From: a virus
Taxonomy: Duplodnaviria; Heunggongvirae; Uroviricota; Caudoviricetes
Direction: 5' to 3' (one strand)
IMG/VR virus record: IMGVR_UViG_2529292985_000017
Span: 1 to 4,757 of that record
Length of the DNA stretch: 4,757 nt
The notes beneath the pieces are model-generated. The model was given only the letters and a program-made list of their open reading frames with translations, made no database searches and was not told the DNA's origin. A program made the translations under genes and the position numbers. The stretch's first letter is position 1. Each line of letters opens with the position of its first letter. Of the stretch, positions 1 through 4,757 are shown one piece after another.

Positions 1-863
1 TACTGTCACCGCTGGAAGAAGCGCTTCAGGATTATGTGCTGACTGACGGTAAGCTCCATGCTGATGACACGCCTGTCCCGGTGCTGTTGCCAGGCAATAA
101 GAAAACGAAGACCGGGCGGTTATGGACCTACGTTCGTGACGACCGTAACGCCGGGTCAACGCTGGCGCCGGCGGTGTGGTTCGCTTACAGCCCGGACAGA
201 AAAGGCATCCATCCGCAGACCCATCTTGCGGGGTTCAGTGGTGTACTGCAGGCGGATGCATACGCCGGGTTCAACGAGCTGTACCGGGATGGCCGGATAA
301 CGGAAGCCGCCTGTTGGGCTCACGCCCGCCGTAAAATCCACGATGTGCACGTTCGCACCCCGTCAGCCCTGACGGAGGAAGCGCTGAAACGGATCGGCGA
401 ACTGTACGCCATCGAGGCAGAGATAAGGGGAATGACGGCGGAGCAGCGCCTTGCCGAACGTCAGTTGAAAACGAAACCGCTGCTGAAATCCCTGGAAAGC
501 TGGCTGCGTGAAAAGATGAAAACCCTGTCGCGACACTCAGAACTGGCGAAAGCGTTCGCATACGCCCTGAACCAGTGGCCGGCGCTGACGTACTATGCAG
601 ATGATGGCCGGGCTGAGGCGGACAATAACATCGCTGAAAATGCGTTGCGGATGGTCAGTCTGGGCCGCAAAAACTACCTGTTCTTCGGTTCGGATCATGG
701 AGGAGAGCGGGGAGCGCTGCTGTACAGCCTGATCGGGACGTGCAAACTGAACGGAGTGGAGCCAGAAAGCTACCTCCGCTATGTCCTTGACGTCATAGCC
801 GACTGGCCGATAAACCGGGTCGGCGAACTGCTCCCCTGGCGCGTAGCACTGCCGACTGAATAA
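1..863 (+). CDS. tnpC: IS66-family transposase TnpC (orf3), C-terminal ~287 aa; 5' end outside window
   Basis: Frame is open from position 3 ([26 protein letters not shown]...) to TAA at 861-863. The translation has the hallmarks of IS66 TnpC as I recall them ([24 protein letters not shown]). The track ORF 36..863 is only the first in-frame GTG within a frame that is open to the window edge. Confidence 0.9.
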
Positions 864-868
864 CACAT

Positions 869-900
869 CCCCGTCAATACGGTTCTTGCTGCACGCTTAC
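869..900. repeat. IS66-family right terminal inverted repeat (copy A)
   Basis: Reverse complement of 869-900 matches the first ~30 nt at 4433-4464 at about 22 of 30 positions by hand alignment, including the shared GTAAGCGT start. The inner boundary is approximate. Confidence 0.6.
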
Positions 901-1086
901 AGATTAGCCCCCGTTCTGTTGTCAGGTTTTACCTCTCAACGTGCGGGGGTTTTCTCTTTCCAGCAACCAATGCCACCAGGGATAAAGCCCCCGCAACATT
1001 GCGCCTCACCGGATAATTCCGGCTTGGTGTGGATACTACGACTCAATTCATCTTCACTTCATCCCTGAAATGTTTGCAATGAAGAG

Positions 1087-1122
1087 TGAAGTGGTCAACA
1101 AAAACTGGCCACCGAGTTAGAG
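1087..1122. repeat. IS911-like right terminal inverted repeat
   Basis: A 36-bp terminus beginning 5'-TGAAGTGG, matching my recollection of the IS911 right inverted repeat. The orfB stop codon (TGA, reverse complement of 1095-1097) lies inside it. Confidence 0.6.
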
Positions 1123-1810
1123 TTTTTCCAGTATCGATTTTCCGATTCGTTTGGGGGTAACCCACCGTTATATTCGTGCGGTCTTAGTGCGCTGTAATAT
1201 CCAACGATATAGTCCGTTATGGCGTGAGCTGCCTCGCTGAAGCTTACGTAACCCACCACCGGCATCCATTCGTTCTTCAGACTCCTGAAGAAGCGTTCCA
1301 TTGGGCTGTTATCCCAGCAGTTTCCGCGCCGGCTCATACTCTGTCTGATCTGGTATCGCCACAATAACTGCCGGAACTGCCTGCTCGTATAATGACTGCC
1401 CTGATCGCTGTGGAACATCACCCCACCGGGCTTACCACGGGTTTCCCATGCCATTTCCAGCGCTTTCATGGTGAGCCTGCTGTCCGGCGAGAACGACATG
1501 GCCCAGCCCACTGGTTTTCTTGCGAACAGGTCGAGAACAACGGCGAGGTACGCCCAGCGCTTACCCGTCCAGATACAGGTCACATCACCGCACCACACCT
1601 GATTTGGCTCGGTCACGGCGAACTGCCTTTCAAGGTAGTTAGGGATAGCAACATGTTCATGACCACCACGTTTATACCGGTGAGTCGGCTGCTGACAGCT
1701 GACCAGCCCCAGCTCTTTCATGAGCCTGCCAGCAAGCCAGCGTCCCATCTGGTAGCCTCTCCGGGTTGCCATTGTGGCGATGCTTCTTGCTCCGGCCGAA
1801 CCATGGTAGG
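1087..1810 (-). mobile_element. IS911-like (IS3 family) element remnant: right end plus most of orfB, left ~40% deleted
   Basis: The terminal sequence TGAAGTGGTCAACAAAAACTGGCCACCGAGTTAGAG (1087-1122) starts with TGA and contains the orfB stop codon, as in IS911. Transposase homology runs up to about 1805-1815, where phage-like sequence begins. No orfA, frameshift window or left inverted repeat is present. The inner boundary is approximate (plus or minus 20 bp). Confidence 0.8.
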
Positions 1811-1835
1811 CTGAAATGGTAACAGTGGGCTGCAA
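1095..1835 (-). pseudogene. IS3-family (IS911-like) transposase OrfB, DDE integrase domain; N-terminally truncated, no orfA partner
   Basis: The translation has the IS3-family motifs ([33 protein letters not shown]; D in NQVWCGDVT; D in [11 protein letters not shown]; E in [10 protein letters not shown]). It closely resembles IS911 OrfB as I recall it. The frame is open only to a stop at 1866-1868 and the track start at 1833-1835 is TTG. In intact IS3 elements OrfB is made as an OrfAB fusion by -1 frameshifting, and that upstream part is missing here. Confidence 0.85.
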
Positions 1836-3211: not shown

Positions 3212-3573
3212 ACTTTCACGGTATTGTTTCCGGCGCAGTACGTCGGGTAAATCCCTTTACAGACGCGCTGGTTTATCGTTCCCGCGGGAGTACACAGCAG
3301 GCAGATTATTCCCGCGTACCTGAGTATGAAGATCCGGTTTCCGTCAGGGGGCAAAAGCAGGCTGTCACCCAGGCTGATTTACGTCATCTTGATAATCTTA
3401 ACCAGCAGGGAGTTTTCGCCACATTGTATACCGATGGTAACTGGTGCGGGCTTAACCGTGCCCGGCAACAGGGAGGCGATAAATTTGTTATTGGCGATGA
3501 AACGTGGCTGGTGATTGAGGTACTGGAAATCTGGCCTGACTGGACGAGGGTTATTGTATGCCTTCAGGTGTGA
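3208..3573 (+). CDS. Phage neck/head-tail module protein, unknown function
   Basis: 121 codons, translationally coupled to neighbours on both sides (ATGA overlap upstream, 16-nt overlap downstream). Position in the neck-gene run supports coding. I recognise no family. Confidence 0.7.
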   Translation: MNFHGIVSGAVRRVNPFTDALVYRSRGSTQQADYSRVPEYEDPVSVRGQKQAVTQADLRHLDNLNQQGVFATLYTDGNWCGLNRARQQGGDKFVIGDETWLVIEVLEIWPDWTRVIVCLQV

Positions 3574-4103
3574 CCCTCTCCGTTACGGAAAGCGCTCTTT
3601 ATCAGGCCCTCGGTGATTATCACCGGGGGCTTTTTTCTGATGCCGGGATTGAACGAACGCAGCAGAACCAGGTCCCGATGCCTCAGGGGAATTTCATCAC
3701 CATGACGGGCATTGATGTTACCGGATTATCCACTGCGGTAGTGGCATATTCTGCGCCAGCGCAGGCTGGTGAGGGCTCTCAGCATATCACCCGTACCACA
3801 AAATGGCGTTGCCAGCTTGATTTCTACGGCCCTCACGCGGCAGATAACGCTCAGGTGCTGGCAACGCTTTTCCGGTCTGAATTTTCCGTACGGCTTTTCC
3901 GGCAGGGCGGTGGGCTGATTTCCCCGCTGTATTGCTCAGAGCCCTTTAACACCACATTCCCCAACGGTCAGCAACAGTATGAACCGCGCTGGACGCTTGA
4001 TATTCAGATGCAGATTAACCCTGTGGTCACAACTTCCCTGATGTTTTTTGACAACGTGATCACCCGGACAACGGAGGCTGATAATGCCAATTCCACTCAG
4101 TAA
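3558..4103 (+). CDS. Phage neck protein, possibly tail-completion/terminator-like, unknown family
   Basis: 181 codons; GAGGG about 7 nt upstream. It sits immediately before the sheath-like gene, the usual position of a tail terminator or completion protein. The functional label is positional inference only. Confidence 0.65.
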   Translation: MPSGVTLSVTESALYQALGDYHRGLFSDAGIERTQQNQVPMPQGNFITMTGIDVTGLSTAVVAYSAPAQAGEGSQHITRTTKWRCQLDFYGPHAADNAQVLATLFRSEFSVRLFRQGGGLISPLYCSEPFNTTFPNGQQQYEPRWTLDIQMQINPVVTTSLMFFDNVITRTTEADNANSTQ

Positions 4104-4449
4104 AGATGTACAGATAAATCCCGGTGTGCTGGCTGTGGCGGGTAATGCCGTCGATCTTAACGGCCTGCTGTTGACCAGTAATCCGTTACTTCCGGTCGGC
4201 ACTGTGGTTCCGTTTTCCTCTCCGGATGATGTGGCCGCGTATTTTGGTGCATTATCCGATGAGTACGCACGCGCTCAGCTTTATTTCCAGGGCTTCAAAA
4301 ATGCCACCAGGACGCCGGGGCAATTGTTGTTTTCCCGTTTCAGTCCTGCCCCATCGGCGGCCTGGTTACGTAGCGGTTCGTTTAAGGGCGCGACTGTTGA
4401 ACAGCTACAAAAACTTTCCGGCACGCTGATGCGTAAGCGTACAGCCTGA
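4084..4449 (+). pseudogene. DUF3383-type phage structural (tail-sheath-like) protein, N-terminal ~116 aa only; interrupted by IS66-family insertion at 4432/4433
   Basis: GGAGG 6 nt upstream of ATG 4084. The N-terminus (...VVPFSSPDDVAAYFGALSDEYARAQLYFQGF...PGQLLFSRF) fits my recollection of the DUF3383 N-terminal region; full-length members are several hundred residues. The last codons and the TGA stop (4447-4449) lie inside the IS66 left inverted repeat. Confidence 0.7.
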
Positions 4450-4464
4450 ACCGTCTGGTCAGAA
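4433..4464. repeat. IS66-family left terminal inverted repeat (copy B)
   Basis: Imperfect inverted match to 869-900 (see copy A). The inner boundary is approximate. Confidence 0.6.
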
Positions 4465-4524
4465 TCTGACGAATTAGACAAAGTGGTGTCCACCAAATAA
4501 GTAGTGGGAACCAAAGTGTCAGAT

Positions 4525-4757
4525 ATGCAGAAAAATGTGAATCCCGGCAGGCGAAAAGGCTGCCCTAATTATCCTCCCGAATTTAAACAGCAGCTCGTTG
4601 CTGCCTCCTGTGAACCCGGGATATCCATCTCAAAACTTGCTCTTGAAAATGGCATTAACGCCAATCTGTTGTTCAAATGGCGACAACAATGGCGCGAGGG
4701 AAAGCTGCTATTACCTTCTTCAGAGAGCCCCCAGCTACTTCCTGTGACTCTCGATGC
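4525..4757 (+). CDS. tnpA: IS66-family accessory protein TnpA (orf1), N-terminal 77 aa; 3' end outside window
   Basis: Translation MQKNVNPGRRKGCPNYPPEFKQQLVAASCEPGISISKLALENGINANLLFKWRQQWREGKLL... is the helix-turn-helix N-terminal protein typical of IS66 orf1. In-frame TAA at 4498-4500; alternative starts GTG 4504 and GTG 4516; ATG 4525 chosen. The frame is open to the window end. Confidence 0.85.
   Translation, partial: MQKNVNPGRRKGCPNYPPEFKQQLVAASCEPGISISKLALENGINANLLFKWRQQWREGKLLLPSSESPQLLPVTLD

Follow-up and report, generated by a model that had tools for sequence, protein, structure and literature searches.

The 4,757-nucleotide stretch analysed here (hereinafter the window), held in IMG/VR as the viral record IMGVR_UViG_2529292985_000017, is in all likelihood a piece of the chromosome of Shigella dysenteriae CDC 74-1112 crowded with insertion sequences (ISs), in which one IS66-family element lies in an rdl antitoxin RNA gene, a second lies in the tail-sheath gene of a decayed prophage, and a patchwork separates the two. 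We propose that one 2441-bp copy of an ISEc22-like element (copy A) would have inserted in the rdl gene of a chromosomal long direct repeat (LDR), and a second copy of the same element (copy B) in the sheath gene of a prophage resembling Pseudomonas phage E217. Between them would lie, in this order, 186 bp of the LDR, a truncated and inverted IS911, and 2.6 kb of prophage neck and tail genes (Table 1). Both IS66 copies would then be passive products of the IS expansion of Shigella, which may serve as recombination substrates and probably form no functional composite element.

The window is 100% identical over positions 1-4757 to the whole of contig AERM01000079.1 (4757 bp) in assembly GCA_000193895.2, which represents S. 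dysenteriae CDC 74-1112 (PMC6397287). It thus represents one draft-assembly contig in full, not a section cut at will from a finished genome, and its "bracketing" by IS66 therefore simply marks where the contig starts and stops. Judging from the coordinates, the contig most likely ends within IS66 at both sides because the assembler was unable to get through a multi-copy repeat of 2.4 kb. In other short-read assemblies the breaks fall exactly at the IS911 and IS66 repeats, their contigs covering window positions 1730-4507, 1777-4459, and 1808-4428. Across 5,426 complete Escherichia coli genomes, no single locus contained 80% or more of the window, and phage records gave no match comparable to the whole of it, with high identity being restricted to the IS911 part, plus a short stretch of 901-1086 at 86-87%.

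The original prediction, made from the letters of the window, placed the right end of an IS66-family element at its start (to 900) and a left end at its close (from 4433), both on the plus strand, and alignment to full copies together with Pfam matches confirmed these assignments. In complete Shigella genomes (L003-L012), full copies of 2441 bp match positions 1-900 with their right 900 bp at 99.6-99.8% identity, the match ending exactly at 900, and positions 4433-4757 with their first 325 bp at 100%; the window ends accordingly correspond to IS positions 1542-2441 and 1-325, which are complementary and do not overlap. The open reading frame (ORF) for the C-terminal part of TnpC (36-863, plus strand) recovered the Pfam domains DDE_Tnp_IS66 (3e-81) and DDE_Tnp_IS66_C (4.6e-17), and that for the N-terminus of TnpA (4525-4755, plus strand) recovered HTH_Tnp_1. 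The full copies in L003-L012 code for a TnpA of 126 aa (HTH_Tnp_1), a TnpB of 115 aa (TnpB_IS66), and a TnpC of 512 aa, the last with LZ, zf, DDE_Tnp_IS66, and C-terminal domains. The element accordingly displays the hallmarks of the IS66 family: the DDE transposase domains of TnpC, accessory tnpA and tnpB genes upstream of tnpC (tnpB as seen in the full copies of the relatives), inverted repeats beginning with GTAAGCG (left, GTAAGCGTACAGCC; right, GTAAGCGTGCAGCA as the reverse complement; 19 of the first 22 positions identical, and both starting with GTAAGCGT), and, for copy B in the relatives, an 8-bp target-site duplication. Over 903 aligned bases (window 1-903), the element shares 99.78% identity with a copy that RefSeq annotates as "IS66-like element ISEc22 family transposase" (L001), whereas copies annotated as ISEc8 family reach only 88-93%; the ISEc22 label uses the RefSeq-annotated copy as a proxy for the ISfinder reference. 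Sixteen full copies from complete genomes, 2436-2441 bp in length, vary at only 18 of 2441 alignment columns. Both window ends belong to one IS species, and the near identity of its copies makes them good substrates for homologous recombination, as had been supposed; an exchange between copies is indeed seen in CP026840 (below).

As the original prediction noted, the octamers next to the two ends differ: AGATTAGC (901-908) directly follows copy A, and GCTGATGC (4425-4432) directly precedes copy B. The prediction had left it open whether these were two independent copies or the outcome of recombination between copies, and had suggested looking for an 8-bp duplication at the distal ends. At copy B such a duplication is found: in 9/10 complete Shigella genomes (L003-L008 and L010-L012), GCTGATGC recurs directly after the right end of the element and is followed by the rest of the sheath gene, and in an uninterrupted prophage (L002) the octamer is present once, at a site lacking IS66. 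A chimeric ORF of 121 aa (4084-4449), which begins in the sheath gene and continues into the IS, was seen in 153 blocks of the assembly collection, 16 of them on contigs longer than 1 Mb. These matches show that copy B stems from an old and simple transposition event, which left a matched 8-bp duplication and is common to many Shigella genomes. The original prediction had named matched duplications as the mark of simple independent insertions with no rearrangement, and a rearrangement at copy B found no support in these nine genomes. Were the duplication also present in CDC 74-1112, the right junction of copy B would be predicted to read ...GCACGCTTAC followed directly by GCTGATGCTGAGTATTAACG.

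Copy A adjoins a wholly different target. The 186 bp that follow it are 100% identical to a sequence that every E. coli chromosome carries, in multiple copies (a median of four places per genome across the 5,426 complete genomes), and they exactly match positions 2893-3078 of L018, between two ldr genes of the kdsA-chaA cluster. The LDR encodes the Ldr toxins and the Rdl antisense RNAs. Within the repeat, a full-length match to the Rfam rdlD family at 890-955 scores 73.2 bits, well above the gathering score of 50, which identifies it as an rdl antitoxin RNA gene. The first ~11 model positions of this match align to IS66 bases; hence, the IS sits in the 5' end of rdl and the gene is 5'-truncated. 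As the flanks of copies A and B derive from unrelated targets, an rdl gene and a prophage, the two are independent insertions, with that of copy A being separate from that of copy B. If copy A were a simple insertion in rdl with duplication of AGATTAGC, its left junction would be predicted to read ...TTGATGGTTCAAGATTAGC joined to GTAAGCGTACAGCC.

We further observed that the end of IS911 lies 186 bp beyond the IS66 insertion and ~39 bp before the expected stop codon of the next ldr gene, such that a single ldr/rdl toxin-antitoxin unit is dismantled by two different ISs, IS66 and IS911. An imperfect inverted repeat is found at window 1053-1091 (CTTCACTTCAT ... ATGAAGAGTGAAG), the right arm of which spans the native LDR and continues into the first bases of IS911 (TGAAG). 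The native LDR already reads ...CAATGAAGAGTG where IS911 begins, and IS911 has therefore inserted beside a sequence resembling its own terminus. Two small ORFs that span junctions, 886-1068 (plus strand) and 1043-1165 (minus strand), gave no record on look-up.

The original prediction described everything between the IS66 ends as a 3.5-kb prophage segment. This holds for 1809-4432 (2.6 kb), and does not hold for 901-1086, which is the LDR, nor for 1087-1806, which is IS911. Across its 720 bp, the latter stretch shares 99.4% identity with the IS911 annotated in phage Sf6, and a minus-strand ORF (1095-1835) recovered the Pfam domains rve, rve_3, and rve_2. It lacks orfA, the N-terminal part of orfB, and the left end, and it is therefore a fragment of IS911, not an element. 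IS629/IS1203, our first guess for this IS3-family fragment from its protein sequence, was ruled out by the 99.4% identity to IS911. In two of the complete genomes the fragment (L003, 7225-7740; L010, 7227-7742) is without the counterpart of window 1602-1804, an extra deletion of ~203 bp at the boundary between IS911 and prophage.

The prophage part is collinear at 99.0% identity with intact prophages of E. coli RMDEC364 and others. Relative to these, everything upstream (terminase, portal, and capsid genes) is missing at the junction with the truncated IS911, showing that the head genes were lost there, and at the other end the sheath gene is split by the left end of IS66. The gene for the DUF4054 protein contains a perfect hexamer array, (GTATCG) x 5.3, at window 2430-2461, which codes for an (SV)n run. 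L013 and L015-L017 share with the window a gene product of 157 aa; in most complete Shigella genomes it measures 151-152 aa, and L006 and L008 have a fusion with the following gene (344 aa). The array is thus an in-frame, length-variable repeat of a dead prophage gene and a possible strain marker.

Table 1. Features of the window, with coordinates counted from its first letter.
Feature	Position	Strand	Remarks
Copy A, right 900 bp of an ISEc22-like IS66-family element	1..900	+	C-terminal part of tnpC (ORF to 863); right terminal inverted repeat, closing at 900 with ...GCACGCTTAC
Chromosomal LDR (ldr/rdl type I toxin-antitoxin long direct repeat) fragment, 186 bp	901..1086	+	Most of the rdl antitoxin RNA gene
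IS911 (IS3 family), 3' 720 bp	1087..1806	-	Right inverted repeat TGAAGTGGTCAAC... at 1087; C-terminal ~3/4 of orfB
E217-like myovirus prophage remnant, neck/tail module, 2.6 kb, cut at both ends	1809..4432	+	Pfam and PHROGs
PHROG 2085 protein gene	1816-2154	+	
DUF4054 gene	2160-2633	+	
Tail completion/Neck1 gene	2627-3211	+	
E217 gp28-like collar gene	3208-3573	+	
Neck terminator gene	3558-4103	+	
DUF3383 tail-sheath gene	4084-4432	+	First 116 codons (full protein 494 aa)
Target octamer of copy B, GCTGATGC	4425..4432	+	Repeated on the far side of the element in relatives
Copy B, left 325 bp of the same IS66-family element	4433..4757	+	Left inverted repeat GTAAGCGTACAGCC...; N-terminus of tnpA from 4525

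The 3.5-kb spacing of the IS66 ends comes from one draft contig that crosses repeats, and it may be real or chimeric. The link from LDR to prophage passes through the 720 bp of repeated IS911, and was reproduced by no other assembly found. In 10/10 complete Shigella genomes, the outer end of the IS911 fragment adjoins a fragment of a holin gene, not the LDR. In the closest relative found, a 35.7-kb draft contig (L013, QXID01000020.1) with one mismatch in 3401 bases, it adjoins the panD-panC-panB region (8729-8928), neither the LDR nor the holin fragment; this flank reflects either another genuine rearrangement or another route taken in assembly. We infer that the LDR and the prophage were brought together either by an IS911-mediated homologous rearrangement or by a wrong path taken by the assembler.

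The second of these possibilities, which we rate at somewhat below an even chance, would have an IS66-LDR-IS911 locus joined to a separate locus of IS911 fragment, prophage, and IS66 through the shared 720 bp of IS911; a full-length IS911 would then lie in the kdsA-chaA LDR cluster, and the IS66 ends would not be 3.5 kb apart in the genome. Consistent with such a chimera, positions 1-1806 consist wholly of repeated DNA (IS66, LDR, and IS911), the LDR among them with its median of four copies per genome, and the outer flank of IS911 takes three different forms: the LDR in the window, the holin fragment in the complete genomes, and the panB region in L013. Moreover, the IS66-LDR (900/901) and LDR-IS911 (1086/1087) junctions were absent from the 5,426 complete E. 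coli genomes, and exact-pattern scans for them found no match in the genome, metagenome, or viral contig collections, which evidently lack this Shigella lineage. However, Shigella genomes do rearrange between IS copies (PMC7373316; likewise L009, below), making a real, strain-specific join equally plausible, and the flank seen in L013 may itself be an artefact. Nor does variation within IS911 decide the matter: a single synonymous base (1425 A) is private to the window and only three or four other columns vary among Shigella copies, which is too few for the left and right parts to be phased to different copies.

Returning to our reading of the window as an IS-crowded chromosomal stretch recorded as a repeat-bounded contig, several points weigh against it or temper it. 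The contig reaches 900 bp into one of the IS ends, which is beyond the reach of short reads; the assembler therefore resolved some of the repeat, and the internal joins may be correct too. The attribution of the contig breaks to the repeat is drawn from coordinates, and the assembly method of AERM01 forms no part of its basis. The far ends of both IS66 copies of CDC 74-1112 lie beyond the contig, with the duplication at copy B being demonstrated in relatives only and the left flank of copy A falling outside the contig.

IS expansion, the disruption of genes and prophages, and IS-mediated rearrangement are established for Shigella (Hawkey et al. 2020, PMC7373316), and the relatives of the window offer cases that involve this very IS66 element. 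In the complete genome CP026840.1 (L009), copy B (10350-12790) keeps its left flank, and its right flank begins with GATTTTGC, an octamer that in L003 and L010 stands before the left end of another IS66 copy (the one at 2109/2112). When the left flank of that copy in L003 and the right flank in L009 were joined with a single octamer (600 bp), the product was contiguous at 99.5% identity in an E. coli DUF4376 tail-fibre-associated gene; hence, an IS66 copy inserted ancestrally in this gene has since swapped partners with other copies. In L009 the tail genes downstream lie in inverted orientation, which is consistent with, and suggests, an intra-prophage inversion between IS66 copies of opposite orientation. 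Further, in seven complete genomes (including L003-L005, L007, L010, and L012), a second IS66 copy in direct orientation lies ~5.8-6.0 kb upstream of copy B, and its flanks are mismatched in 7/7 (ATAAAAAC or GATTTTGC on the left, TCTGAGAC on the right). This upstream copy has therefore itself gone through recombination or an adjacent deletion. IS66 copies do recombine in this lineage, and these cases show no event involving 901-4432.

A composite transposon consists of two IS copies that mobilise the DNA between them, as in Tn5, Tn9, and Tn10. The original prediction had raised deletion, amplification, or composite mobilisation of 901-4432; none was seen, with no search having been made for a single-IS66 deletion product. 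That both direct IS66 copies, together with the intervening 3.5 kb, make up such a transposon, or an amplifiable or excisable unit that varies as a whole, is very unlikely, even though two nearly identical direct copies flank the segment in the contig and a further direct copy is present upstream of copy B in the seven relatives. Copy B carries a duplication of its own and hence arrived alone; the outer flanks of the direct copies in the relatives differ (ATAAAAAC or GATTTTGC on the left, GCTGATGC on the right), and no single duplication around the whole unit was found there, the outer ends in the source strain lying outside the contig. The interior offers nothing selectable and is debris, made up of part of a toxin-antitoxin locus, a dead IS911, and phage genes cut short. 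Neither the E. coli genomes (0/5,426 at the 80% threshold) nor the phage records, nor the junction scans of the genome, metagenome, and viral collections, placed the unit at any second location or replicon. It is just as improbable that the copies in CDC 74-1112 are truly 3.5 kb apart and act as an IS66 composite or recombination cassette by which the patchwork of LDR, IS911, and prophage is excised, amplified, or transposed.

Least probable of all, and in our view with next to no chance of being correct, is a single IS66 copy on a small circular molecule opened inside the IS: the contig does start and end in complementary, non-overlapping parts of one IS, but in collinear complete chromosomes, on which grounds we rejected this reading, the 4433 end runs through a full IS into the remaining sheath gene and the tail module, the flanks are unrelated chromosomal targets (LDR and prophage), and no replication genes were found in the window. 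The view of the original prediction that two different copies are present, and not one element seen across a circular junction, is thus borne out by the unrelated flanks and the collinear chromosomes.

Taken together, the observation behind the prediction was partly confirmed and its interpretation partly supported. Nothing here is new in kind: the IS66-family IS, IS911, and the LDR/rdl locus are already known, and the prophage has intact, near-identical relatives. The window is a further case of Shigella prophages and small toxin-antitoxin loci being broken up through IS expansion, and of ISs acting as sites of recombination, and it carries little biological weight. It does counsel caution: where a window spans an entire draft contig, the same repeat will often be met at its start and at its end, and neither repeats at contig termini nor joins that pass through repeats can be taken as evidence of how the genome is arranged.

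Among known systems, the IS66 element shows no substantial difference from the ISEc22/ISEc8 group of IS66 in E. coli and Shigella, with which it shares the tnpA-tnpB-tnpC arrangement, the GTAAGCGT repeats, and the 8-bp duplication. The phage genes in 1816-4432 show the same families and gene order as the structural module typified by Pseudomonas phage E217 (E217_gp27/DUF4054, E217_gp28, Phage_tail_terminator_9, and E217_gp31_N/DUF3383); unlike that module, the copy in the window is a dead remnant, its head genes lost and its sheath gene split by IS66. The likeness to composite transposons ends with two copies of one IS around a few kilobases, and the window differs in having no duplication round the unit, no second location, an IS with a duplication of its own, a non-functional cargo, and a possibly chimeric spacing. 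A further parallel is the IS-driven decay of Shigella genomes (Hawkey et al. 2020, PMC7373316). That account stresses IS1, IS2, IS4, IS600, and IS911, next to which the IS66-family element found here is minor, and it lists ISEc8 for Sd197 while otherwise not discussing IS66. The features are nevertheless the same: multiple IS types interrupting genes and prophages, truncated ISs, non-matching flanks, strain-to-strain differences beside each IS, and draft assemblies that break at ISs.

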